A DNA stretch of 23,276 bases from Candidatus Aenigmatarchaeota archaeon (GCA_015522145.1 WAMV01000010.1:1-23276), one strand, 5' to 3'. Positions 3,980-21,854 are shown, counted from the stretch's first letter. Notes: a model not told the origin generated them from the sequence alone. Program-made: numbers and translations.

Positions 3980-4720
3980 TTAAAAAACAAGGTTTTTTAA
4001 AGGAATCTCTAAAACTTCTGCTTCGGGTTCTATTATGTAAGCAACCATTTCTTTGATATCTACAGATTTTAGAATAGGTGATAAAAACTCTTGAGCTACA
4101 TTTATAGCATAACCCTCAGCTAAGGGTGATAGGGCCGGAATAACTATAATGGGTTTTCCATAAGCCTTTCCTTTTAGGAAGCACTTAAACTTGTGCTTAA
4201 CACCAAGTTCATCTCTTATTACAACAGAAGGATGCTCGTTAGCTATGATAATTTCTTTAACTTCTTTTCCAAATTCTTTCAAGCTAATTTCTTTGTGACC
4301 GTGCATGAATAAAATACCTTTCTCAAAATAATAGGGGTCATAAAAACCTATATCCATTTTTTTAAGTAAAGGTATTATGAAGTTATCGTGATTGCCTCTA
4401 ACCACTATAATCTCTAGCTTCCTGCTTTTTAGAAATTCTAAAAGATCTTTTGTTTCCTTCCATTCTTGCAAAGTGGCTTCTCCAAATTCATGCTTCAAAT
4501 CACCATTTATTATAATTTTTTGAGCGTCAACCATTTCTAACATCTCTTTAATTTGTTTTTTTATTTTGGGATATTGGGACTTTGGGATTTGTATTCCCTG
4601 CTTTTCTAGGGCAGCTTCGTATCCTATATGCAAGTCGGAAATAACCAGAGCTTTTATTTTTTCTACAAAAAGACCTGGTTTAGCATCAATTATTTTGAAT
4701 CCAGGCAATATTTCTTTCAT
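3980..4720 (-). CDS. Lhr-associated metallophosphoesterase (calcineurin-like, MPE)
   Basis: Motifs SDLHIG, GDLKH, GNHD, HGH and ANEHP; ATGA overlap with the lhr stop and a GGAGG SD. Confidence 0.85.
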   Translation of the reverse strand: MKEILPGFKIIDAKPGLFVEKIKALVISDLHIGYEAALEKQGIQIPKSQYPKIKKQIKEMLEMVDAQKIIINGDLKHEFGEATLQEWKETKDLLEFLKSRKLEIIVVRGNHDNFIIPLLKKMDIGFYDPYYFEKGILFMHGHKEISLKEFGKEVKEIIIANEHPSVVIRDELGVKHKFKCFLKGKAYGKPIIVIPALSPLAEGYAINVAQEFLSPILKSVDIKEMVAYIIEPEAEVLEIPLKNLVF

Positions 4721-7317
4721 TCAACCTCCCTCTTTATCTTATCGTACAACCTTTTCAATATTTCCTTTCTATCTTCCATAAGGACAACGTCTGTAAGACC
4801 TATAAGCACAATATTGTGTGCAAACGGAGAAGGCATTGGTAGGGAAGCCTCCACAACCTTAATCCTACCTTCTTCTATCCACCTTAAAACCTTTCTGGCA
4901 TTTTCTACATCCATATAGTCTTCCAACAACTCTCTGTATGTTTCTTTAATGATAGGAAAGTTATCTATTTCAGAAACAATTTTTATTAAAGTTTCAGCAC
5001 TGGTTTGCTGCTTACTTGCGCTTATTTCATAACCTTTGTAGTTTCTTAGTATCATCAACCCTCTATTGGCACAGTGTCTAAACCTTCTTTTCATGAGCTC
5101 GGTGTTTTTAACAGCCTCTTTTAAAATTTCTTCCAAATTTTTAGAGTTCACATAATTCAATGGGTTTAAAGACTTATCTACAGGCAATATCAAGCCAAAT
5201 CCATTATCACTTACCATAACACCCATATTTCTCCTAAGCTTTTTCCCAATTACATAAGCAAATGCTTTAGCTAAAGCTTCATTAACCTTGCGCCCAAAAA
5301 GTGTGTGCCATATTATATTTCTTCTTCCTTCTTCATCATAGAAATGTTCAACCAGAATGTGCTTATCGTCAGGCATTTGCTCAATATTGTTTTTCTTGAG
5401 AAACTTGTATTGTAGCAAAAAGTATTCGTAAATGCTGTTGGCTGTATTATCATCAGCGTGACATTTTTCTTTAATATATTCTGTTACTTTTTTCTTGTTA
5501 TGTATGTTTTGGAAAACAAATTTCCTAAACTTGGAAATTTCTAAAGCTAGGTCAAAACTTAAAGGTAACTGTTCACTAAACCAACTTGGTACAGTAGGTT
5601 TCTTATCAAAAGCTTTTTTCACTCTAACTCTTAAGCCTCTAGCTGAGACAAATTCATAAACCCTACCTCCCAGCACAAACCTGTCTCCTTTAACCAACCT
5701 TTCCAGAAAATCTTCTTCTAGATTTCCAACATATTTGCCGTTTTCATCATAAACCTTAACCATTACCTCATCTGGTATGGTTCCTATGTTTAAAGCATAA
5801 ATTACTCTAGCGTACTTGCCTCTTCTTCCAAATTCTTTGGTTTTCTCATCAAACCAAATTTTTCCATATATTTTATAATCTTCTAGCATGCTATAACCAC
5901 CAGACAAAAATCTTAACACTTCAACAAAATCTTCCATCTTCAAACTCCTGTAAGGGTAAGCTTGTTTAACTAGCCTGAAAGCTTCTTTTACCTTCCATTT
6001 TTTGTTTATGGCCATACCCAGCAAATGCTGAGCTAGTACATCCAAGCAGTTTTTCGGTATTTTTGTCTTGTCTAGATGATTTCTATAAGCTTCCTTTACC
6101 ATAACAGAAATCTCCACCATATCATCCAAATCTAACCCTATCATAACGCCTTTAGTTGTCTCATGCAAAGCATGCCCACTTCTTCCAATTCTCTGCAAGC
6201 ATCTTGTTACACTTTTTGGAGAGCCTATTTGCACTACTAAGTCAATGTAGCCAATATCTATACCCAGTTCCAAGCTTGTTGAACTGACAACTACTTTTAG
6301 CTTACCTTTTTTGAGTTTTTCCTCAACATCAAACCTTACATGCCTAGATAGGCTACCGTGATGAGCAGCTACACTTTCTATTTCTTCTTTGGGCATGAGC
6401 TGTTTAAGATGAAAAACAACCCTCTCTGTCCCGCTTCTCGTGTTTGTAAAAATTAGTGTGGTTCTGTGTTTCTTTATCAAATCTAACAAGGTTTTGTACA
6501 TTTCTTTATTCAATTTTTCTGCAGAAGTATGTACAACATCTTTTACAGGAGTGATGACTCTTATATCCTTATTTTTAATGAAACTTACATCAACAATCCA
6601 GCATCTTCTTTGCTTTAAGCTTTTATCGTAACCAACCAAAAATTTAGCTACTTCCTCTATTGGCGAAATAGTGGCAGAAAGCCCAATTCTAACTATTTTG
6701 TGATTAACCCAATACTGCAATCTTTCTAGACTTAAACTTAAATGAGTACCTCTTTTACTTTCAGCCAAACTATGTATTTCATCTACAATTATCCACTTAA
6801 CACTAAAAAGCTTCTCCCTGAATTTGGGTGCGTCCAGCATTATTGCTAAACTTTCTGGTGTTGTAATTAAAATGTGGGGTGGCTTTCTCAACATGTTTTG
6901 TTTTTTGCTTGCTGGCGTATCGCCAGTTCTTACAAGGTGTCTTATTTTTTCAATTTTTAGCCCTTTGTACTTGGCTAATTCATAAATCTCATTTAAAGGC
7001 TCTTCCAGATTTCTGTGTATATCGTTGTTAAGAGCTCTTAAAGGTGAGACATATATGCAGTAAACTTTATCTTCTAATTTTCCTTTTTTGGCCAGTCTGA
7101 AAAGTTTATCTATAATAGATATGAAGGCTGTAAGCGTTTTACCTGTTCCTGTAGGTGAAGAGACTAGCACATTTTTGTTTTTATGAATAAGAGGTATGGC
7201 ATAGGCTTGTGGAGGCGTTAAATCTTCAAACTTATTACTAAACCATTCTGCAATAATTTTATCCAGTAAAACCAAGACTTCTTTTTTGGTGTATTTTTTC
7301 TTTGCGTAGCGAATCAT
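4717..7317 (-). CDS. lhr: ATP-dependent SF2 helicase Lhr (Lhr-core)
   Basis: Motifs SPTGTGKT, SPLRALNND, TTPES, DEIH, SAT, HHGSL, SLELGIDIG and QRIGRSGH. Start moved to the ATG at 7317 (MIRYAKK). Confidence 0.93.
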   Translation of the reverse strand: MIRYAKKKYTKKEVLVLLDKIIAEWFSNKFEDLTPPQAYAIPLIHKNKNVLVSSPTGTGKTLTAFISIIDKLFRLAKKGKLEDKVYCIYVSPLRALNNDIHRNLEEPLNEIYELAKYKGLKIEKIRHLVRTGDTPASKKQNMLRKPPHILITTPESLAIMLDAPKFREKLFSVKWIIVDEIHSLAESKRGTHLSLSLERLQYWVNHKIVRIGLSATISPIEEVAKFLVGYDKSLKQRRCWIVDVSFIKNKDIRVITPVKDVVHTSAEKLNKEMYKTLLDLIKKHRTTLIFTNTRSGTERVVFHLKQLMPKEEIESVAAHHGSLSRHVRFDVEEKLKKGKLKVVVSSTSLELGIDIGYIDLVVQIGSPKSVTRCLQRIGRSGHALHETTKGVMIGLDLDDMVEISVMVKEAYRNHLDKTKIPKNCLDVLAQHLLGMAINKKWKVKEAFRLVKQAYPYRSLKMEDFVEVLRFLSGGYSMLEDYKIYGKIWFDEKTKEFGRRGKYARVIYALNIGTIPDEVMVKVYDENGKYVGNLEEDFLERLVKGDRFVLGGRVYEFVSARGLRVRVKKAFDKKPTVPSWFSEQLPLSFDLALEISKFRKFVFQNIHNKKKVTEYIKEKCHADDNTANSIYEYFLLQYKFLKKNNIEQMPDDKHILVEHFYDEEGRRNIIWHTLFGRKVNEALAKAFAYVIGKKLRRNMGVMVSDNGFGLILPVDKSLNPLNYVNSKNLEEILKEAVKNTELMKRRFRHCANRGLMILRNYKGYEISASKQQTSAETLIKIVSEIDNFPIIKETYRELLEDYMDVENARKVLRWIEEGRIKVVEASLPMPSPFAHNIVLIGLTDVVLMEDRKEILKRLYDKIKREVE

Positions 7318-7366
7318 GCGTATATTTTTAAGCTTTTTATACAATTTATTTTATTGTTTTAATAAC

Positions 7367-7931: not shown

Positions 7932-10187
7932 ATGCAACCCTTTGTTGTATGGTTGGATCAGGTAAGCAAGGATGATTTGCTTTTGGTTGGTGGGAAGGGA
8001 GCGAATCTTGGTGAAATGATAAAACTTGGTTTGCCTGTACCGCTTGGCTTTGCTGTAACTACTTTTGCTTTTGATAAGTTTCTTGAATCCAATGGCCTGG
8101 ACGTTAAAATTTGGAAGATGATCAAAGAGTGTGATGTTGAGAATACTCAGGAACTCTTGCAGGTCAGTAATAAGATTAAGCAAATGATTTTAGCTAGTGA
8201 TATACCAGCTCCGATAAAAAATTCCATAATAGATGCATACAATAAACTTTCCTACACTTTTCTCAAAATTCCAGAAAAAATAGCTAGCTTAGTTAAGATG
8301 CGCGGCCCAACTTTGGTTGCTGTAAGAAGCAGTGCTACAGCTGAAGATTTGCCTACAGCAAGCTTTGCGGGCCAGCAGGCAACTTTTCTGAACGTTAAAG
8401 GAGAAACTCAACTTATTGAAGCGATAAAAAAATGTTGGGCAAGTTTGTTCGAGCCAAGGGCCATATATTACAGAGCTAAGAATAATATTAGCAAAGCCAG
8501 CATAAGCGTTATCGTGCAAAAAATGGTGAACAGCGATGCTAGTGGTGTGATGTTTACAGTAGATCCTGTTACAGGAGAAGATTTCATAGTTATAGAAGCT
8601 ACTTGGGGTTTGGGCGAAACTTTGGTAGGAGGGGAAGTAGAACCAGACTTTTACAAAGTTGATAAAAATTCTTACGATATAGTTGAGAAGAAAATTGGAA
8701 GAAAGGAAATAATGAGAATAAGAGATTACAAAAGTGATTCAACTATTGTTGTGCAAGTACCTGATGAGCTTGTAGAAAAGCAAGTGCTCAAAGAGGAGCA
8801 AATAAAAGAGCTTGCTAAATACGGTGTAATTTTGGAAAAGCATTATAAAAGACCTCAGGATATTGAATTTGCTGTAGAAAGGGGCAAGGTTTATATTGTG
8901 CAAACAAGAGCAATAACTGCAGTTGGTAAAAAAGAAGAAGTTAAGATTGAGGGAAAGGTTTTGCTTAAGGGAATTCCTGCTTCACCAGGCATAGCAACCG
9001 GTAAAGTAAAAATAGTTCATGGTTTGCAAGATATAACAAAAGTTGAACCTGGTGATATTCTAGTAACTAAAATGACTTCTCCAGACTTAGTGCCTACAAT
9101 GAGTAAAGCAGCAGCCATAGTTACTGATGAAGGGGGCAGAACAAGTCATGCAGCTATAGTAAGTAGGGAAATGGGAATTCCCTGTGTAGTTGGTACAAAA
9201 GAAGCAACTAAAATATTGAAGGACGGTATGCTAATTACAGTTGATGCTTACAACGGGATAATATATGAAGGCAAGCAAGAAATAGAAGTTAAGCAAGAAA
9301 AGTTTGAAGCAATTGAAACAAAAACAAAAGTTAAAGTTAACTTAGTTTTTGCACCAAAAAACATAGAGGAAATTGCTAAAGCTGCTGATGGTGTTGGTTT
9401 GCTAAGAATAGAGCATATGATTACTCAGTTTGGTGTGCATCCAGCTAAGCTTATAAAAGAAGGTAGAACGCAAGAATATGTTGATTTGTTAGTTAGAGGC
9501 ATAGAACCAATAGCTAAAGCCTTCCATCCTAAGCCCGTTTGGGTAAGAACGCTAGATGCAAGAACAGATGAGTTTAGAAATTTGGAAGGAGGGCAGGAAG
9601 AGCCTCATGAAGCCAATCCAATGCTAGGATGGCATGGTATAAGACGTAGCTTAGATGAGCCAGAATTGCTTAAGGCAGAATTCTTAGCTGTTAAGAAATT
9701 GCATGAAAAAGGTTATGATAATGTAGAAGTTATGTTACCATTTGTAATAAATGTTGAGGAATTTGAGAAAGCTAAAGAAATCGCTAGAGAAGTTGGTTAT
9801 GATGGTAAACTTGGCATTATGGTTGAGACGCCAGCAGCAGCTTTAAACATAGAGGAATTTTGCAAAGCAGGCATAAGCTTTGCTTCTATAGGTAGTAATG
9901 ATTTAACAATGCTAACTTTGGGAATAGATAGGAATAATGAAAAAATAGCAAGTCTTTACTATGAGCTTCACCCTGCCGTGCTAAAGCTGATAAGCAATGT
10001 TATTAAGGTTTGTAATAAATATGGTGTTGAAAGTTCTATTTGTGGGGAAGCTCCAAGCAACTATCCAGAAATGATAGAATTTTTAGTTAAAGAAGGTATT
10101 GGTAGCATCTCTGTAAACATAGATGCTTTACAAAGAGTTAAGAAGCAAGTAAAAGAATTAGAAGCTAAGCAGGAAAGTTCTGTTTAA
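7932..10187 (+). CDS. ppsA: Phosphoenolpyruvate synthase (pyruvate, water dikinase)
   Basis: GGKGANLGE, VAVRSSATAEDLPTASFAGQQ, the phospho-His motif GGRTSHAAIVSRE, EANPMLGWHGIR, SIGSNDLT and ICGEA. Confidence 0.96.
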   Translation: MQPFVVWLDQVSKDDLLLVGGKGANLGEMIKLGLPVPLGFAVTTFAFDKFLESNGLDVKIWKMIKECDVENTQELLQVSNKIKQMILASDIPAPIKNSIIDAYNKLSYTFLKIPEKIASLVKMRGPTLVAVRSSATAEDLPTASFAGQQATFLNVKGETQLIEAIKKCWASLFEPRAIYYRAKNNISKASISVIVQKMVNSDASGVMFTVDPVTGEDFIVIEATWGLGETLVGGEVEPDFYKVDKNSYDIVEKKIGRKEIMRIRDYKSDSTIVVQVPDELVEKQVLKEEQIKELAKYGVILEKHYKRPQDIEFAVERGKVYIVQTRAITAVGKKEEVKIEGKVLLKGIPASPGIATGKVKIVHGLQDITKVEPGDILVTKMTSPDLVPTMSKAAAIVTDEGGRTSHAAIVSREMGIPCVVGTKEATKILKDGMLITVDAYNGIIYEGKQEIEVKQEKFEAIETKTKVKVNLVFAPKNIEEIAKAADGVGLLRIEHMITQFGVHPAKLIKEGRTQEYVDLLVRGIEPIAKAFHPKPVWVRTLDARTDEFRNLEGGQEEPHEANPMLGWHGIRRSLDEPELLKAEFLAVKKLHEKGYDNVEVMLPFVINVEEFEKAKEIAREVGYDGKLGIMVETPAAALNIEEFCKAGISFASIGSNDLTMLTLGIDRNNEKIASLYYELHPAVLKLISNVIKVCNKYGVESSICGEAPSNYPEMIEFLVKEGIGSISVNIDALQRVKKQVKELEAKQESSV

Positions 10188-12096
10188 TGTAATTATAAGT
10201 TCTCTTTAGCTCATTTATTGCAATCTGTTTTTTGATTTCAGCTTTTGGATTATTTAGGCAATAATTACAGCCTCTTCTTTCTTCTTCCCTCCATAGAGCA
10301 TTAATAATTTCTATTGGATGTTTTAGTGCTCTTTTGAAATTGTTATAAACTTCTCTTATCATTTCTCTTGTCGACTCTTTGACTTCTTCAGTTACTATTC
10401 CATACCTTTTTCTTGTTACTACTGGTATTTCTGGGTTGGAGGTTATGGCTTGATACAAAATAATATGCATATCAGACATCTGCAAGTTTTCAAAGCTTTT
10501 CTTTCTTCTTAAGTTTTGAGTTACAATTGAGCCGTACACATATTCTTGCATCAAATGTACTTTCTTATAAGCCTCTGGCAAAGCTATTGTTGATTTCAAA
10601 TCCATAATAACCACTTTATTTTTTTCTCTGGCAAGACTATCTATCCTGCCTGTAATTGGTATGTCATCAAAATAGCCCTTTATGGGAACTTCTGTATAGC
10701 TATTTCTAGGGATTATGGTTTTCCCGTCAAAAAGTATAGTTAGTAATTCATGAGCAAGAAGTCTGTTTGTTTCATTTTCTAACACTAGTTTATGAAGCAT
10801 AGAACCTTTTTGAATTGTTAACCATTCATCTTCTGTAAAGAATTCTCTATCTTCTATCCTTAGCTGAGAGTACAATCTTTGAAGAGGACAGGGAGCTACT
10901 AGCGTAGATGGGTGTATTGCTAAAATTTCATGAATAGGATCTTTCCATTGAAAATCTAAATTAAATTTTTTAACGGGAAATGGTATTAACTCTCCGCTCC
11001 TTTCCCATTCTTCTAGAATTAAAGCCTCTATAGGCATGTAAGCGGTTCTTATTTTAATAAATTCTTCGTTTGAATTCTCAGGGAAATATTTGTCATAATA
11101 ATATCTCCACATAAACTTGTCATCTTGTATTTCAGGATATAGCAATCCACCAAATTTATTAAAGTCTATAATTGGCGTACCATCTTCTTCATGTAGCATG
11201 CTATAGTAATTTCCTTCTTCCACGAAATTTGGTGGATACACATATTCTATCCCTTTAGCAAAATATTTAGAAATTTTATCAATGTTGTAAATTGACTTGC
11301 CATGAACGTAATTTAAGAAAGCAATCAACTTTTGGGGAGGCATTCTTTGCATTTCATTCCAGTTTTTGCCTATGTAAAATTTTAGGTTTGGTTTATTTCG
11401 GAAATTTTTCTGTAGTTCTACTAGATAATTTTTGCTTAAATATCCGCTTTTCGAATCCATTGTGTAGATGTCAACTTGTTTGAACAATTTGCTCAAAGTT
11501 TCAAAGAACCATGATAAATAACTAAATACCATTTGCTTATTTTCTCTTAACCACATTCTCTCTTCTCTTTCATTAAACTCCCTCCCATATTTTTGTTCAA
11601 ATTCTTCTTTTGGTATGCCCAAAATTTTTTCGTAATTTTCAGCTTTCTTTTCAAGCTTTTCAAGAACTTTTTTAGCTGGCGAAGTGGATATAACAGAACC
11701 AACCATTTTATAATTCTTTGAGTAGTTTAGACTTTCACAGTGACCGTTATATATGTACCAGACGTCAAAACCATTATGAGGAGAAGGAACTTGAACAACA
11801 AGAATATGTTTATTAGTTTTTTTAGAGTAATCCTTTAAAATTTCCCTTAAAGGATTTCTAGGCGCGTTAAGATTAACAGAAACATATCTAGTTCTTTTAT
11901 TATAAGGTGAAGACGAAAGCCATCCCCACTGTTTGTAAGGTATGACTAAGACTAAAACATTGGTTACATCCAATTCATATAACCTTTTTCTTAATCTTAA
12001 GAACGATTCTGGGCCATTTTTTGATATCTCGTTAAAGAAAGGTTCTTGCTTTACGTAAATTCTTCTTGGATGGCTAAAGTAGCTTAAAGCATTCAT
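10165..12096 (-). CDS. Cas4-like PD-(D/E)xK nuclease fused to a ~390-aa N-terminal region (possibly a degenerate PolB exonuclease domain)
   Basis: The C-terminal third has PCP...KGSMLH...E...GRIDSL...IMDLKS...QEYVY...CNYC, i.e. RecB/Cas4-type motifs with three Cys. The N-terminal assignment is weak. Confidence 0.75.
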   Translation of the reverse strand: MNALSYFSHPRRIYVKQEPFFNEISKNGPESFLRLRKRLYELDVTNVLVLVIPYKQWGWLSSSPYNKRTRYVSVNLNAPRNPLREILKDYSKKTNKHILVVQVPSPHNGFDVWYIYNGHCESLNYSKNYKMVGSVISTSPAKKVLEKLEKKAENYEKILGIPKEEFEQKYGREFNEREERMWLRENKQMVFSYLSWFFETLSKLFKQVDIYTMDSKSGYLSKNYLVELQKNFRNKPNLKFYIGKNWNEMQRMPPQKLIAFLNYVHGKSIYNIDKISKYFAKGIEYVYPPNFVEEGNYYSMLHEEDGTPIIDFNKFGGLLYPEIQDDKFMWRYYYDKYFPENSNEEFIKIRTAYMPIEALILEEWERSGELIPFPVKKFNLDFQWKDPIHEILAIHPSTLVAPCPLQRLYSQLRIEDREFFTEDEWLTIQKGSMLHKLVLENETNRLLAHELLTILFDGKTIIPRNSYTEVPIKGYFDDIPITGRIDSLAREKNKVVIMDLKSTIALPEAYKKVHLMQEYVYGSIVTQNLRRKKSFENLQMSDMHIILYQAITSNPEIPVVTRKRYGIVTEEVKESTREMIREVYNNFKRALKHPIEIINALWREEERRGCNYCLNNPKAEIKKQIAINELKRTYNYIKQNFPA

Positions 12097-12148
12097 ATTT
12101 GAAGAAGTAGCACTTAATTATTTAACTCTAACTTCTATCAATCAAATT

Positions 12149-13915
12149 ATGACAAAAATCTTAACAAACATTCTGAACCGCCCCACAACTCTTACTTTAG
12201 TATACAGAAATTCTAAAAATGAAATTGAAAAAGAAGAAGTAAATAAGCTTAAGACTGGGCATAAATATTTCTCAGGTTTAGAAGCAACTATAGTAGCAAA
12301 CTTAATTGGACCTTATATAGGCAGGTTAAAACCTAATTATGTTTTATATAATTCTATTGTATTTGATATAGAATCTATAGAAAGAGAGCCTGGTTTGTGG
12401 CAAGTTGTTATGTTAGGAACTTATGATGGGGAAAGTCATAACACAGTTTATTCTCCTGATGAAGAAGAATTGGCTAAAATGATTTTGGATATTTGGCCTT
12501 ACGAAAAAATTTTTGCTGTTGGCTATAACATTTCATCTTATGACTTTGCAATGATAGATAAAACAATCAAAAAAATTGTTAAATCAAATTCTATAATAAA
12601 ATCTAGAATCCCCAAATTCTTCTCTAGGGAATATGGAGAAGAAATCTATGGACAAGCATCTATAGATTTGATGAATTTATCTTTGTTATCTTCCTTACCT
12701 TCTCATAGTTTGGAAATTGTACTAGAATCTCTAAAAATACCAATAAAAAAATATGATCAAAGAAAATTTCTTGAAATGCTCTACAATCAAAATTGGGATT
12801 TAATCATAGAACACAACAGAAATGATAACTATGGAACTTACAAGTATCTCGAGGCAACAAACTCTTTGATAGAATTTATCCTTAGAAATTCTTTAGGAAA
12901 CGTGTCTTACGCTTTAAGCAGACATAAAATAGCTAAAAATATGCTAATGTATTCTTTATCAAGCTATATAGATAATCCTCTAAAAAGAGTCGAAGTGGTT
13001 TATGATGCTCTTAAGAAACATAACTTGCTAAATAGCTTTAATAAGCAGGATTTAAAATACACAAAAAAAGGAAAAGAAGGAACGTATAAAGAATCTTACA
13101 TTTTGTTTAAACATTTACAATTTGCAAATTACATTATTTATGCTGATAGTTTTAAAAAATGGGCATTTTATTATTTAGTAAAAAAGCTGAACAACTTTGC
13201 TGCTGAAACAGCAAGAAAAGCCCGTTATAATCCAAAATATTTTCATATTCTATCTATTTTAAATTCTATAGTTGCACAAATAACAAAACCACTTTATCTA
13301 AAGTATGGTTTCTGGCGCAATTTTTACAATGCAAATTTTTCAAGCAAAGCTAGGGAAAATGCTATATACGATGATTTCTACATAGCAGTTTTTCCAAAAA
13401 TAGTTTTTCACAAATATTCTTTACCTTTAGACAATTTTGTATGTGGAAAAACACCAACAGGTAATGTTTATTATGAAGCAAACTATAAAGGAATAGTTTT
13501 GGCTTCTAAAACCTCTTTACCTCAAAAAGTTTTATTACCAGATTATTATTCCAAAAACCTTAATAAAGCAAGAATAGATAGAGCGAGAGGAACAACAACT
13601 TATAAAAAACCACAGATAAGGAAAGATAAGTATGAATTGTCAATAAGAGTAAGTTATAAAAACCCGATTAATTACACCAATCCAAATTCATATCAAGCTA
13701 TAATGGCTAAACAAATAGAGGAAGAGGCTAAAAAATATGGTTTAAAACTTAAGGAAAACGAACCTTTGATTATATGGTTAGGTAAAAATGGAAAACCAAT
13801 TTTATATTATAATGAAGATGAAATAGATATTGGAGTTTATAGAGACAATGTTTTGAAAGCTTACGAACACTACAATTTCTACAGGAAAAATACCTTAGAT
13901 AATTTTTTAAGCTAA
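12149..13915 (+). CDS. Family B DNA polymerase-derived protein: intact 3'-5' exonuclease, degenerate polymerase domain, C-terminal PIP-like box
   Basis: ExoI VFDIES, ExoII GYNISSYDF and ExoIII EHNRND are present. Polymerase motif A/B/C positions are recognisable only in degraded form. Thumb-like C-terminus ends KNTLDNFLS. Confidence 0.75.
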   Translation: MTKILTNILNRPTTLTLVYRNSKNEIEKEEVNKLKTGHKYFSGLEATIVANLIGPYIGRLKPNYVLYNSIVFDIESIEREPGLWQVVMLGTYDGESHNTVYSPDEEELAKMILDIWPYEKIFAVGYNISSYDFAMIDKTIKKIVKSNSIIKSRIPKFFSREYGEEIYGQASIDLMNLSLLSSLPSHSLEIVLESLKIPIKKYDQRKFLEMLYNQNWDLIIEHNRNDNYGTYKYLEATNSLIEFILRNSLGNVSYALSRHKIAKNMLMYSLSSYIDNPLKRVEVVYDALKKHNLLNSFNKQDLKYTKKGKEGTYKESYILFKHLQFANYIIYADSFKKWAFYYLVKKLNNFAAETARKARYNPKYFHILSILNSIVAQITKPLYLKYGFWRNFYNANFSSKARENAIYDDFYIAVFPKIVFHKYSLPLDNFVCGKTPTGNVYYEANYKGIVLASKTSLPQKVLLPDYYSKNLNKARIDRARGTTTYKKPQIRKDKYELSIRVSYKNPINYTNPNSYQAIMAKQIEEEAKKYGLKLKENEPLIIWLGKNGKPILYYNEDEIDIGVYRDNVLKAYEHYNFYRKNTLDNFLS

Positions 13916-13937: not shown

Positions 13938-14567
13938 ATGAGAGTAGCTAGCAATAATATAGAGGTTGTATTTGGAAAAGGAATAGGCCACGTAATAGAA
14001 GATTTGCTAATGCATGCCAGCAAAAGAATTTGGATAATGAGCCCCTGGATATCTGAAAAGTATGCAGATTTTTTGATAAGTAAGAAGAATAAAGGGTTGG
14101 AGGTTAAAGTTTTTACTAGTGATAATTTTCGCATAGAGAGTCATAAGCGAGCTGTTAAAAAACTTTTTAATGTAAGGTATGAGTGGAATAAAATTACTAT
14201 TTTTGTTTTAATTGCTTATCTTTCTATTTTAATTGTGCTCAGCTTTCTGATAACCCCAGCGTTCTTAGTCTTTTCCATCTTAGCCGCCCCAGCAAAAAAA
14301 TGGTTAAAGAAGACAAACGTAGAGAAGATTATAGATGTGGAGATTTTTGATAACATAGCTAGCCTAACTCATGCCAAAATTTATGTTATAGATGACAAAG
14401 TTGTTATAGCTTCGGCAAACCTAACAGAATCTGGTTTTTATAAGAACTTAGAAGCAGCCACGATAATCAGAGATGAGGAAGTAGTTAAAAACATAGAGAA
14501 TTACTTATCAAACTTAGTTCATAATCCAAGCATAAGGAAAGTTGAACTAAGTAAGTTAAGCCTTTAA
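13938..14567 (+). CDS. Phospholipase D-superfamily protein with a single HKD motif and an internal transmembrane hairpin
   Basis: IMSPWIS, HAKIYVIDD and SANLT...N-x-E motifs; hydrophobic stretch ITIFVLIAYLSILIVLSFLITPAFLVFSILAA. Confidence 0.85.
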   Translation: MRVASNNIEVVFGKGIGHVIEDLLMHASKRIWIMSPWISEKYADFLISKKNKGLEVKVFTSDNFRIESHKRAVKKLFNVRYEWNKITIFVLIAYLSILIVLSFLITPAFLVFSILAAPAKKWLKKTNVEKIIDVEIFDNIASLTHAKIYVIDDKVVIASANLTESGFYKNLEAATIIRDEEVVKNIENYLSNLVHNPSIRKVELSKLSL

Positions 14568-14592: not shown

Positions 14593-15528
14593 ATGGTCTG
14601 GATGGAAACCTTTTTGTTTATTTTCTTTGCGTACACACTTTTAAAGTCCAGCCAGTATGTTCTAAAAGAAATTAGAAACATAAACAAAATAATCGGAATG
14701 GAAGAATTTTTCCTTGGGTTTATAATGCTTGCTTTAGTTTCGAATTTGCCAGATTTAAGCATAGGGATGTATTCAATATTTACAAAACACAGTGAAATAG
14801 GGGTTAGCGATGTTCTTGGTTCAGTAGTTACAGACATTTTGCTAGCTACAGGTCTTGTTTTTATTTTTGCTAACATCAAAAAGCTCGGTAAAGAAGTCAA
14901 AACCCTTACGAAAATGCTTTTCGCAACAGCTTTGCTGCCCGTGCTTTTTTTGTTAAGCATGCCTAACATCTTGCTAAGCCTTATACTCTTCTTAACATTT
15001 TTGTATTTTAACAAGTCTGCGTTAAAAGTTTACAAAATGAAAAAACAAAAAGGTAGAAATAGACTAAAAATCACAGGAAAGTTTGCTAAAAGTTTATTCA
15101 TCTTAGGTATATCAACCTTCCTTACAATAATCTCATCTAAGCTTGTTGTAGAATACGCTTTACAGATAATCAATTTTATCAATGTTAGCGATGTTTTTAT
15201 GGGAGGGGTAGCTATAGCTTTATCAACAAGCTTGCCAGAGATAAGTATAGCTCTACATTCCATCAAAAGACCTAAAACGGCTTTAGGCACGGTTACAGGA
15301 GCATCTCTAGTTAATTTAACTTTGGTCTTGTCTATATTACTTTTATTTACTCCTTTAGATTTAGGAGCAGAAATTGCACCTCTTATAGTTTTTTGTATAT
15401 TTTCAGCTGGGATAGTTTATTTTTTGATAGAATTGGGATTTATGGGTAGAGCGCAAGGAATATTACTTTTAATTTTATATTTGGTGTATGTTTACTTTAT
15501 TTTTAGTGGGAATGCGCCGGTGGTCTAG
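14593..15528 (+). CDS. Cation/Ca2+ exchanger (CaCA, Na+/Ca2+ antiporter family)
   Basis: About 10 TM helices with two alpha repeats, SNLPD and STSLPE. Start at the ATG at 14593 or 14602. The 3' end overlaps tRNA-Gly. Confidence 0.85.
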   Translation: MVWMETFLFIFFAYTLLKSSQYVLKEIRNINKIIGMEEFFLGFIMLALVSNLPDLSIGMYSIFTKHSEIGVSDVLGSVVTDILLATGLVFIFANIKKLGKEVKTLTKMLFATALLPVLFLLSMPNILLSLILFLTFLYFNKSALKVYKMKKQKGRNRLKITGKFAKSLFILGISTFLTIISSKLVVEYALQIINFINVSDVFMGGVAIALSTSLPEISIALHSIKRPKTALGTVTGASLVNLTLVLSILLLFTPLDLGAEIAPLIVFCIFSAGIVYFLIELGFMGRAQGILLLILYLVYVYFIFSGNAPVV

Positions 15529-15639
15529 CCTGGTAGGACATCGGCCTTCCAATGCTGACAGCCGCTAACTGATTAATGAGGAATAAAAAGCCCTCTAAGA
15601 AGAGAGCCGAGGGCCCGGGTTCAAATCCCGGCCGGCGCA
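15514..15639 (+). tRNA. tRNA-Gly(TCC) with a 53-nt intron at 37/38 (15552-15604)
   Basis: Acceptor GCGCCGG/CCGGCGC+A; anticodon stem TCGGC/GCCGA; loop CT-TCC-A|A; T arm CCGGG-TTCAAAT-CCCGG. Intron GAAG pairs with CTTC (positions 32-35) as the central helix of the splice motif. Confidence 0.92.
15552..15604 (+). ncRNA. Putative intron-encoded box C/D sRNA (tRNA-Gly intron)
   Basis: ATGCTGA - 10 nt - CTGA - tta - ATGAGGA - 12 nt - CTAA, matching C/D'/C'/D order and spacing; the terminal boxes are degenerate. Confidence 0.55.
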
Positions 15640-19433: not shown

Positions 19434-21854
19434 ATGGAACTAAAAGAAAAGTTAAAGCTAAGGAAATTAATAAAAGAGCTTAAATCATACAAAGGAAGAC
19501 ATACGGAATTAGTTAGTGTATATATTCCTTCTGGCTATAATCTTGTCGACGCAGTTAACATGCTTAGGACAGAAGTTTCTACAGCCCAAAACATCAAATC
19601 CAAAACTACACGCAAGAATGTTGTTGAAGCGTTAGAGAAAATATTGCAGCATCTTAAGCTGTTTCGTGAAACCCCACCAAATGGCTTGGTAGTTTTTGCC
19701 GGCAACGTTTCACAAGAAGAAGGCAAACCAGATGTTAGGGTTTGGTCTATTGAGCCACCAGAGCCATTGAGAACAAAACTTTATTGGTGTGACCAAGTTT
19801 TTGTTACTGAGCCACTAGAAGAAATGTTAGAGGAAAAGGACAATTATGGTTTAATAGTTATGGATGGAAGTGAAGCTATCATAGGCGTGCTAAGCGGTAA
19901 ATCTATAAAGAAACTAAAAAGAATTGAAAGCTTGGCACCTAGCAAATCAGTTAAAGGTGGTATGTGTGTATGCGAAGACACACTTATTCAGCTTTCCGAC
20001 GGAAACATAATACCAATTAAAAACTTAATAAACGGTCAAAAAATCTTGTCCTATTCCCTGAAAGATATGAAACCAACATATGTTGATCATTTTGAGATTT
20101 TCAAAAGAAGGGCTAGAGTTGCGTATAAGCTTATATTTAAGTATCCCAGCTTACAACTAACCTTGACCCCAGAACACATAGTTTTTGTAGTAACAGAAAA
20201 TGGAATAGAAGAAAAAAGTGTGGAAGAACTAAGACCTGGTGATAAATTATTAATGGTTTTTGATATAAAGGTTAAAGGAAAAACTACAAATAAAAGTGGT
20301 AAGTTCTATCAATTGCTGGGCTACATTACAGGAGACGGAACCTTTGATAACAACAGAATAATTTTTTACGATAAAGATAAAGAGCTGCTGGAATTTTATG
20401 CTAAAATAGCTGAAACAACTTTAGGCAAAAAGCCAAAAATTTTGAAAAGGAGAAATGCTTATGAAGCCAGAATTTATAGCAAAGAAATAGCAAGCAAAAT
20501 TTCAAAAAAATATAAGGAAGTTGCTAAACTTAGTAGAGAAAGAGATATATCAGAGGAGATTTTGAAACTTCCTAATTATAAACTGAAGTTTTACTTGAGA
20601 GGCATCTTTGATGCAGAAGGTTATATAGATAAGAAAAGTATAGGTATGAGATTATCTAGTGAAATTTTAGCTAAAAAGCTTCATCTATTATTGCTAAGAT
20701 TTGGAATAGTAAGTAGCTTAAGAGGTCCAGATAAGCTTGGTAGGCTTGAGTTAAGAATAACAAACCCAATCATGATTAAGAGATTCTACCAAAACATTGG
20801 TTTTAGTAGTAAGAAAAAAATGAAAAAACTACATGAATTGCTAAGAAAGCATAAAATGAGCTATTCATTTAAAGCTCCAGTTAACGGATTGTTGGTAAGA
20901 AAAATAATTGAAGAAATGGGCTTAAAGAAGGAGGACATTAAAAAATACAGCATGTTTTTATCCGGTAAGAGAAGCATTTCATATCCAATATTTAAGAAAC
21001 TAGTAAAAGAAGTTGAAAGAAAAGCAAGAAGCAAGAAATACTTATCTTTGCTAAAGAGGATGCTTAATTCAAAACTAATCTCAATTACTTTATACCAGAA
21101 GCTGAAAATAAAAACCAGTAAAAGGTTTTACGATTTGTACATCCCCTCCACAAACAGTTTTATTGCACAAGGTATACTAGTTCATAATTCACAAAGACGT
21201 TATGATAGAATTAGAGAACAGGCTCTGATAGAGTACTATAGAAAAGTTGGGGAAATTGCTTCTAAACTATTTTTGGATTTGCCTAATTTGAAAGGTGTAA
21301 TAATAGGTGGGCCAGGTCCGATTAAAGAAAGATTTTATGAAGGAGATTATCTTGATCATAGAATAAGAGAAAAAGTTTTAGGTGTTAAAAGCGTTGGTTA
21401 CGTTAATGAATATGGGTTAGAGGAATTAGTTAAGAGAAGTGAAGATTTAATCCAAGAAGCTGAAATAATGAAAGAAAGAAAACTACTTCAGCAATTCTTT
21501 GCAAACATTCATAAGAAAGGCGAGAAAATCGTTTATGGTTTGGAAGATACTTTGAAAGCTTTAGAAATTGGTGCTCTAGACACAATAATGATTTCTGAAG
21601 ATTTTGATTATGTTAAGAGAAAAATAAAGAAAAATGGTAAGGAAGAAGTGGTTTATCAAAGAGAGAACGAAAGCTATGAAGGCGAACTAATAGAGGAAAC
21701 AGATTTATTGGAAGAAATAGAAAAGCTAGCTAAACAGTTTGGAACTAAAATCGAGTTCATATCAGACTCTACAAATGAAGGAAGACAATTTAAGAATCTT
21801 GGAGGAATTGGTGGTTTACTAAGGTATAGAATCAAAGACTTACAGGCAAGCTAA
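19434..21854 (+). CDS. prf1: Peptide chain release factor aRF1, intein-containing (398-aa extein)
   Basis: GRHTELVSVYIP, NIKS, YWCDQVF, GPGPIK and GGIGGLLRY; the GGQ position reads GGM. Confidence 0.96.
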   Translation: MELKEKLKLRKLIKELKSYKGRHTELVSVYIPSGYNLVDAVNMLRTEVSTAQNIKSKTTRKNVVEALEKILQHLKLFRETPPNGLVVFAGNVSQEEGKPDVRVWSIEPPEPLRTKLYWCDQVFVTEPLEEMLEEKDNYGLIVMDGSEAIIGVLSGKSIKKLKRIESLAPSKSVKGGMCVCEDTLIQLSDGNIIPIKNLINGQKILSYSLKDMKPTYVDHFEIFKRRARVAYKLIFKYPSLQLTLTPEHIVFVVTENGIEEKSVEELRPGDKLLMVFDIKVKGKTTNKSGKFYQLLGYITGDGTFDNNRIIFYDKDKELLEFYAKIAETTLGKKPKILKRRNAYEARIYSKEIASKISKKYKEVAKLSRERDISEEILKLPNYKLKFYLRGIFDAEGYIDKKSIGMRLSSEILAKKLHLLLLRFGIVSSLRGPDKLGRLELRITNPIMIKRFYQNIGFSSKKKMKKLHELLRKHKMSYSFKAPVNGLLVRKIIEEMGLKKEDIKKYSMFLSGKRSISYPIFKKLVKEVERKARSKKYLSLLKRMLNSKLISITLYQKLKIKTSKRFYDLYIPSTNSFIAQGILVHNSQRRYDRIREQALIEYYRKVGEIASKLFLDLPNLKGVIIGGPGPIKERFYEGDYLDHRIREKVLGVKSVGYVNEYGLEELVKRSEDLIQEAEIMKERKLLQQFFANIHKKGEKIVYGLEDTLKALEIGALDTIMISEDFDYVKRKIKKNGKEEVVYQRENESYEGELIEETDLLEEIEKLAKQFGTKIEFISDSTNEGRQFKNLGGIGGLLRYRIKDLQAS
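19965..21188 (+). mobile_element. Intein (408 aa) with a LAGLIDADG homing endonuclease
   Basis: N-terminal CVCEDT, block B TPEH, endonuclease blocks LLGYITGDG and YLRGIFDAEG, block F FYDL, and C-terminal VHN followed by Ser. Confidence 0.95.

Follow-up and report, generated by a model that had tools for sequence, protein, structure and literature searches.

Head-to-head pairing of a polymerase-dead family-B polymerase derivative with a RecB/Cas4-like nuclease in Aenigmatarchaeota: a putative two-nuclease DNA processor

The stretch of DNA analysed here (the window) comprises 23,276 nucleotides from a Candidatus Aenigmatarchaeota archaeon (GCA_015522145.1, WAMV01000010.1:1-23276). It is contig C10 of an archaeal genome (G000; 322,935 bases in 19 contigs, 81% complete) whose lineage belongs to the very small hydrothermal DPANN-type archaea. 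Two long genes lie head-to-head in the window. Gene A (P0001; 10165..12096, minus strand) encodes a protein of 643 amino acids (aa) in which an N-terminal region of no recognisable family precedes a predicted PD-(D/E)XK nuclease, and gene B (P0002; 12149..13915, plus strand) encodes a 588-aa derivative of a family-B DNA polymerase (PolB). The 52 bp between them (12097..12148) hold an A/T (TATA-like) tract, TTAATTATTTAA, at ~12115-12126. An earlier note on this DNA, made from the sequence alone, had singled out the two divergent open reading frames (ORFs) and the 52-bp spacer with its TATA-like tract, and its coordinates are exact. It had also called both ORFs visibly AT-rich. This is true of gene B, whose GC content of 28.3% lies at the 2.4th percentile of the 206 ORFs of at least 200 aa in the genome and whose GC at third codon positions (GC3) lies at the 1st percentile, but not of gene A, where 32.1% GC corresponds to an unremarkable 20th percentile. 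A second complete pair occurs in a relative (G008). Both genomes are ~80% complete (80-81%), and absences in them are given below as ‘not found’.

Gene B encodes a predicted DEDD 3'-5' exonuclease domain of the PolB type (12335..12967, plus strand; aa ~63-273), the proofreading domain that the earlier note had recognised. On the plus strand, Exo I reads FDIE (aa 72-75; 12362-12376), Exo II YNISSYD (aa 126-132; 12524-12544) and Exo III HNRND (aa 222-226; 12812-12826). No Pfam, PHROG, PADLOC or NCBIfam model matches the protein significantly, and the PolB exonuclease model PF03104 stays under its cut-off at 18.9 bits. A profile of the three members of the gene B family aligns to nine PolBs of the phylum in hhalign with a probability of 98.7% (E 4e-16), and each of the 39 PDB sequences that the family profile matches is a family-B polymerase (E 4.1e-8 for the best). 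D73, E75, N127, D132 and D226 of gene B are invariant or nearly so across 12 PolBs, the exonuclease carboxylates are intact in all three family members, and the domain is closest to those of cellular archaeal PolBs. An AlphaFold2 (AF2) model of P0002, built from a 15-row alignment that included 12 PolBs, has a predicted local distance difference test score (pLDDT) of 70-90 over residues 63-246, and only the exonuclease domain is folded; with a 2-row alignment the mean pLDDT was 32. The best 16 structural matches of the model are all family-B polymerases (Z 17.5-13.6; root-mean-square deviation 2.5-4.4 Å over 168-199 aligned residues). The N-terminal domain is nearly absent, with ~65 aa ahead of Exo I.

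The place of the palm and fingers is taken by a degenerate middle (aa 274-494; 12968..13630, plus strand) without polymerase motifs. Gene B has no PF00136 match in Pfam, no SLYPS and no DTDS motif, in line with the earlier description of a polymerase-dead PolB. In the three-member alignment, none of the acidic positions lying between D275 and E538 is invariant, and the middle ~220 residues show no confident similarity in hhalign. A MAFFT alignment leaves at most a D/E/E relic at the position of motif A (YADSFKKWAF; 13139-13168, plus strand) and a possible relic of motif B in VKPLY or SKARENAIYDD. These placements are tentative, and we do not rely on motif-level mapping, because MAFFT and hhalign place motifs B and C differently. 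The sequence features support reading gene B as a PolB derivative whose exonuclease site is intact and in which no polymerase centre is detectable.

Beyond the middle lies a thumb-like C-terminal region (aa 495-575; 13631..13873, plus strand) that includes the segments LSIRVSYKNPINYT, NEPLIIWLGKNG and EIDIGVY. A profile of the C-terminal half of gene B (A7) matches the thumb of L027, a genuine PolB that carries YGDTDS and SLYPS, with an E of 6.5e-5. Residues 480-588 alone give an E of 0.016 in hhalign, at the colinear position 696-771 of 805. The AF2 model scores 52-67 in pLDDT for about residues 520-570 and falls below 50 in the rest of the thumb region. The C-terminal ~100 residues may be described as weakly recognisable relatives of a PolB thumb. 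The A7 profile also matched ~660-aa proteins of genus g82 (E 0.002-0.03), which we rejected as compositional noise because the one that was opened is a multi-pass membrane protein.

One residue from its C-terminus, gene B carries the PCNA-interacting peptide (PIP)-like box that the earlier note had reported, KNTLDNFL (aa 580-587; 13886..13909, plus strand). PIP boxes follow the terminal consensus Qxx[LIM]xx[FY][FYLI]. The pattern xxxLxxF[LIY] stands at the extreme C-terminus in all three members of the gene B family (KNTLDNFLS, KSLIQFYY and TITLDSFIQ), and in gene B it takes the place that QKGLTSFLK, a canonical PIP box, has at the end of the 805-aa PolB of G000. PCNA genes were found in both G000 and G008, and the tail suggests that the gene B protein may be recruited by PCNA. 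A complex prediction of PCNA (30-row alignment) with residues 490-588 of P0002 reached at best 0.27 against a mark of 0.32, without controls, and counts neither way.

Gene A ends in a predicted PD-(D/E)XK nuclease domain of the RecB/Cas4-like type (10258..10827, minus strand; aa 424-613). The Pfam model PDDEXK_1 (PF12705) matches these residues with an E of 4.2e-5 (24 bits against a cut-off of 22), phrog_1706 matches the domain at E 3e-8, and its language-model neighbours in the Atlas belong to PDDEXK_1/Cas4 clusters (score 0.93). The motifs are GSMLHKLVLE (431-440), D486, D499-x-K501 and QEYVY (517-521); G431, H435, D486, D499 and K501, which make up GxxxH, D486 and D499-x-K501, are invariant with P0004, the homologue in G008. 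Cas4/RecB motifs had been claimed for gene A, and these matches and residues bear the claim out, although ‘Cas4-like’ is too specific a label. Cas4 is defined by four conserved cysteines, which belong to its Fe-S module (PMC5704561, in part). Gene A has C403, C610 and C613, three of the four of the Cas4/AddB cluster, P0004 has no cysteine at any of these columns, and the Cas4 model PF01930 (Cas_Cas4) has no match to gene A at E up to 1. With the cysteine set incomplete in gene A and absent in P0004, gene A is predicted to encode a RecB/Cas4-like nuclease, not a strict Cas4.

The N-terminal ~350 aa of gene A (11047..12096, minus strand) are conserved in all three family members and have no recognisable fold or family. 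Searches of Pfam, PHROG, NCBIfam and PADLOC yielded no family beyond weak coiled-coil noise, the family profile has no PDB match in this region, and the Atlas has no usable match for residues 1-350. Two strain variants of gene A, P0007 and P0008, carry 8 and 1 substitutions, respectively, all outside the nuclease core and without disruption of the frame; in all, three strain variants of gene A are intact. Gene A is the only PF12705 match in G000. A separate protein of 340-375 aa with a full-length PF12705 match occurs in three other genomes (G008:C24:6636-7328, G012:C61:1639-2328 and G002:C5:45912-46604) and was not found in G000.

Homologues of the two genes are rare, and they occur together. 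A HMMER scan of 1.84 billion representative proteins with P0002 gave one relative, P0003 (E 4.6e-7; 618 aa; P0003/P0006), which is colinear with gene B from a shared N-terminus, MxxILTN (BLASTP 1e-16). Among 371 genomes of the phylum, a profile search identified another gene B homologue, P0005 (679 aa), in G008. There it lies head-to-head with P0004 (705 aa), a homologue of gene A over its full length (BLASTP E 2e-10, 26% identity), across a spacer of 49 bp, or 52 bp if translation starts at an ATG one codon in. A scan with P0003 retrieved the third locus, L024, a metagenome contig of 2,882 bases that carries a P0003-type gene. Upstream of this gene, at 51 bp and divergent from it, is a partial gene A homologue (L024:1-774, minus strand) with 258 readable residues that are colinear from residue 1 (E 4e-7). 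A gene A homologue therefore stands head-to-head with the gene B homologue at 49-52 bp in all three loci with readable DNA, a recurrence that goes beyond chance. The flanking genes differ between the window and G008 and are housekeeping genes in both: in the window, the pair lies between a phosphoenolpyruvate (PEP) synthase gene and those for a PLD nuclease and a Na/Ca exchanger, and in G008 between S-adenosylmethionine (AdoMet) synthetase and L18e-L13-S9 genes.

A central ATTTAAA-like tract is common to the three spacers, at ~25 bp from each start codon (about 24-29 bp in the window). Such a layout is expected of archaeal promoters in which two leaderless transcripts depend on a single TATA element. 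The spacer is thus a putative bidirectional promoter for leaderless mRNAs, and genes A and B may be co-regulated through it. A search of sequencing runs for the locus gave three DNA runs from a single study and no RNA run.

Beyond these loci, word-indexed searches with P0001, P0002 and the gene B alignment A1 returned only the queries themselves, and scans of genome contigs and metagenome contigs, as well as two of viral contigs, with alignments A1 or A2 gave no relative. As a profile, A1 matched 119 of the 371 genomes of the phylum; we rejected the matches outside G000 and G008, which are exonuclease-domain matches to ordinary PolBs. Eleven of these were opened (L012, L013 and nine further short-frame matches), and 10 proved to be genuine PolBs cut by contig ends. 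The eleventh, L063 (G195:C9, 3278-5338, minus strand), is a different 686-aa PolB-like protein from a genome of the same class. Its exonuclease motifs FDIETD, WNSDKYD and YSRRD look intact, and it has no SLYPS, motif B or DTDS; its gene is divergent from one for a deoxynucleoside-kinase-like P-loop protein, not a nuclease. The phylum may have evolved PolB paralogues without polymerase motifs on more than one occasion.

How does the pair compare with described systems? Archaeal family-B polymerases (cellular PolBs of the phylum; solved Thermococcales enzymes such as 5vu5, 1tgo and 4ahc) share with gene B the Exo I/II/III residues, the colinear order of exonuclease, middle and thumb with a similar thumb-like end and, in the 805-aa PolB of G000, a C-terminal tail of the clamp-binding type at the corresponding place. 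They differ in length, at 805-920 aa compared with 588 aa, and in the PF00136, SLYPS and DTDS signatures that gene B is without. Elsewhere in G000 there are two ordinary PolBs, whose frames span 897 and 808 aa. One is the 805-aa polymerase with the canonical PIP box (G000:C13; L006 1432-3849, minus strand). The other, of 890 aa (G000:C18; L005 1270-3942, minus strand), has a cysteine-rich C-terminal domain of the kind described in the Zn-finger-bearing PolBs of Aenigmarchaeota (PMC7544198, in part). Stand-alone PolB-type exonucleases, PF10108 (DNA_pol_B_exo2) and PF13482 (RNase_H_2), are likewise exonucleases without a polymerase. P0003 passes both models (26.2 and 35.6 bits), whereas P0002 and P0005 reach neither. 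These profiles (213 and 165 positions) span the exonuclease only, whereas the gene B family keeps a further ~320 aa with the thumb remnant and the PIP-like tail.

The closest described kind is PolB2 (Dpo2), which resembles gene B in its disrupted polymerase centre, its conserved partner gene and its proposed role in repair or replication control (PMC4104785, in part). In PolB2, however, the exonuclease and polymerase centres are both disrupted, whereas the exonuclease site of gene B appears intact, and the partners are of another kind: an inactivated RadA and a ~90-aa helical protein (arCOG07300) encoded in one operon with PolB2, as opposed to a divergent PD-(D/E)XK protein of 640-705 aa here (PMC4104785, in part). 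No RadA-like gene is present among the Pfam-scanned neighbours in the window and G008; arCOG07300 has no model in the libraries used. With its exonuclease intact and no RadA-like neighbour, we rejected the pair as a PolB2 operon.

Gene A, in turn, shares its PD-(D/E)XK core motifs with the solo Cas4/pfam12705 nucleases of the RecB/AddB/Dna2 family, and its cysteines follow the Cas4/AddB arrangement of one cysteine upstream and a CxxC downstream. Cas4-like nucleases are over-represented in small-genome archaea (PMC5704561, in part). Gene A is 2.5-3 times longer than these nucleases, with a novel N-terminal region, and it differs from Cas4 in having neither a PF01930 match nor the fourth cysteine; no cas1, cas2 or CRISPR array was found. 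In casposons, too, a PolB-family gene, next to a Cas1 casposase, is often accompanied by a Cas4-like nuclease gene. At this locus, by contrast, the PolB is polymerase-dead, the chromosomal surroundings are housekeeping and differ between genomes, Cas1 was found in neither of the two pair-bearing genomes, and the flanks of the pair hold no inverted repeats better than AT-rich chance matches. We rejected a casposon on the lack of Cas1 and terminal inverted repeats and on the polymerase-dead PolB, and a CRISPR module on the lack of Cas1 in the two genomes and of a repeat array in the window. No integrase, transposase or cas gene was found among the 20 neighbouring ORFs scanned, in agreement with the earlier observation that cas1, CRISPR array, integrase and terminal repeats are missing from the window. 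A full-text literature search (supplements excluded) returned nothing that describes the pairing of a polymerase-dead PolB with a PD-(D/E)XK nuclease. The terms ‘Cas4’ and ‘nuclease’ do not occur in the available parts of the PolB survey PMC7544198, nor ‘polymerase’ and ‘PolB’ in those of the Cas4 survey PMC5704561. The earlier note had not recognised the pair as a described system, and we found no published description of it.

The pair lies among housekeeping genes in the window. The PEP synthase gene (7932-10187, plus strand) is convergent with gene A, and the 3' ends of the two overlap by 23 bp (10165-10187). On the other side, 22 bp after gene B, is a gene for a 209-aa PLD-family nuclease (13938-14567, plus strand; PLDc_2 E 1.7e-18), whose best PADLOC and NCBIfam matches are to DrmC of DISARM, well under the equivalog cut-off. 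The PLD gene could be a local third component of the pair, but it is probably a mere neighbour because it is not adjacent to the pair in G008. The gene for an 875-aa Lhr-type helicase (with DEAD, Helicase_C, WH_Lhr and DEAD_assoc domains) shares 4 bp with that for a 246-aa calcineurin-like phosphoesterase (both within 3980-7344, minus strand), and the two together look like a helicase-nuclease repair operon. The Pfam scan of window neighbours also gave a NurA-like gene (113-1108). The eRF1 gene (19434-21854, plus strand; 806 aa) contains an in-frame intein with a LAGLIDADG homing-endonuclease domain, seen as Intein_splicing, LAGLIDADG_3 and Hint matches between eRF1 domains 1 and 2. Other genes of the window encode NYN-domain and DUF1512 proteins, ribosomal proteins L10e and S8e, the Na/Ca exchanger and three tRNAs, the third of which (126 nt; 15514-15639, plus strand; 55.5 bits in Rfam and missed by ARAGORN) probably carries an intron. 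In a protein collection, gene B and a variant of gene A are each recorded from contigs of up to 105,673 bases. Given these records, the housekeeping neighbours and the lack of mobile-element or CRISPR signs, the pair is chromosomal.

So, what might the pair do? The reading we favour, and hold with moderate confidence, is that genes A and B encode a co-expressed and possibly PCNA-recruited two-nuclease processor of DNA ends, flaps or stalled forks that serves repair or replication restart. Gene B descends from a family-B polymerase and no longer has the catalytic motifs for polymerisation. Using the remains of the polymerase scaffold and the thumb, its product would bind a primer-template or a DNA end and shorten the 3' strand, with no synthesis. 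By analogy with the Cas4, AddB and Dna2 nucleases, whose 5' polarity is summarised in PMC5704561 (in part), the gene A product would cut the 5' strand or flap. The two proteins would be expressed together from the one central TATA-like element and would act together, conceivably as a physical complex with the gene B protein probably recruited by PCNA, so that one processor would have both polarities. What the earlier note had observed is confirmed throughout this analysis, apart from the two qualifications given above, and its interpretation as a co-regulated, clamp-tethered complex with two nuclease polarities is partly supported.

Several findings weigh against this reading. By the gene A family profile, two of the phylum's 371 genomes carry the pair, which was not found in G012, a 79%-complete genome from the same genus as G008; a core repair role predicts wider conservation. 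Both genes diverge fast. Between G000 and G008, gene A (P0001 versus P0004) is 26% identical and gene B (P0002 versus P0005) 19%, compared with 46% for PCNA and 55% for canonical PolB, and the 19-27% identity of A and B, together with the low GC3 of gene B, would suit an accessory or defence gene as well. The family has three known lineages, so that conservation statistics are thin. Nor is there an evident missing function for the pair to fill, as Fen1 (in all five genomes searched), NurA and the Lhr helicase with its adjacent phosphoesterase are already present. PolB, too, was found in all five genomes searched and PolD DP2 in none of the five, with no pattern of lost function. As for gene B itself, its Exo III has a histidine at position 222 where PolBs and the two homologues P0003 and P0005 have tyrosine, its PIP-like tail is without the canonical Q, and its middle has a pLDDT below 50 in the AF2 model. 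The PolBs in the alignment bias the exonuclease model towards a PolB fold.

The main rival takes up the patchy distribution and the speed of change. Here the pair would be an anti-mobile-element defence module whose nucleases degrade invading DNA, for example the PCNA-loaded replicating DNA of viruses or plasmids. Presence in two of 371 genomes, divergence that is very fast relative to PCNA and PolB, the low GC and GC3 of gene B and the DrmC-like PLD-family nuclease gene 22 bp after gene B, in one genome only, would all fit, and defence or repair roles have been proposed for solo Cas4-like genes of small-genome archaea (PMC5704561, in part). We nonetheless consider defence unlikely, given that neither A nor B matches any of the 5027 models of PADLOC-DB 2.0 at E up to 0.1, that the flanks are housekeeping genes and not defence islands, that the PLD gene does not adjoin the pair in G008, and that no self/non-self discriminator (methylase, sensor or guide) is seen. 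An improbable variant on the replication side would make the pair a non-catalytic replisome accessory, with the gene B protein a structural pseudo-polymerase in the manner of PolB2 or the C-terminal half of Pol epsilon, and the gene A protein recruited through it. Scaffold or regulatory roles of inactivated PolB paralogues are established (PMC4104785 and PMC7544198, each in part), and gene B keeps a thumb-like end and a clamp-binding-like tail. Yet the exonuclease carboxylates of gene B and the PD-(D/E)XK residues of gene A are conserved across 19-27% overall identity, which argues for catalysis by both nucleases, whereas PolB2 has both of its centres disrupted (PMC4104785, in part).

Chance proximity and decay complete the alternatives. 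Divergent pairs are common in compact genomes, and A and B could be two independent genes that share an intergenic region without any functional link. We give this as little credence as the pseudo-polymerase scaffold, because the head-to-head arrangement with its 49-52 bp spacer recurs in all three loci while the other neighbours differ, and because both families are near-orphans with the same narrow distribution. More doubtful still, and in our view very improbable, is a decaying casposon, provirus or plasmid remnant that brought in both polB and the gene for a Cas4-like nuclease. Genes of the PolB and Cas4-like kinds are found in casposons and in viruses of archaea (in part PMC5704561), and the low GC of gene B would fit. 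Against it, Cas1 was found in neither genome, terminal inverted repeats and an integrase were not found, the two viral-contig scans gave no relatives, cellular archaeal PolBs are the nearest to the exonuclease domain, and three lineages have intact ORFs in which the nuclease sites are conserved.

If the two-nuclease processor is real, it would represent a new way of building a two-polarity DNA-processing machine. A bolder extension, which we put forward only tentatively, is that the pair belongs to a widespread but hyper-divergent invention of DPANN archaea with minimal genomes. A polymerase-dead PolB that only trims 3' ends and a large RecB/Cas4-derived nuclease with a new N-terminal domain would then form a clamp-recruited machine of both polarities for end resection, fork clean-up or the destruction of foreign replicating DNA. 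Inactivated PolB paralogues, such as the C-terminal half of Pol epsilon and PolB2, are central to ideas about how the replisomes of archaea and eukaryotes evolved. The known inactivated PolBs lost their exonuclease as well, whereas gene B seems to be a PolB remade as a dedicated exonuclease and linked to a second nuclease, of RecB/Cas4 type. In gene A, the N-terminal domain is without a known relative and could be a new fold or a new PolB-binding module. The pair may also be an example of how symbiotic archaea of ultra-small size, with few genes at hand, maintain or defend their DNA.

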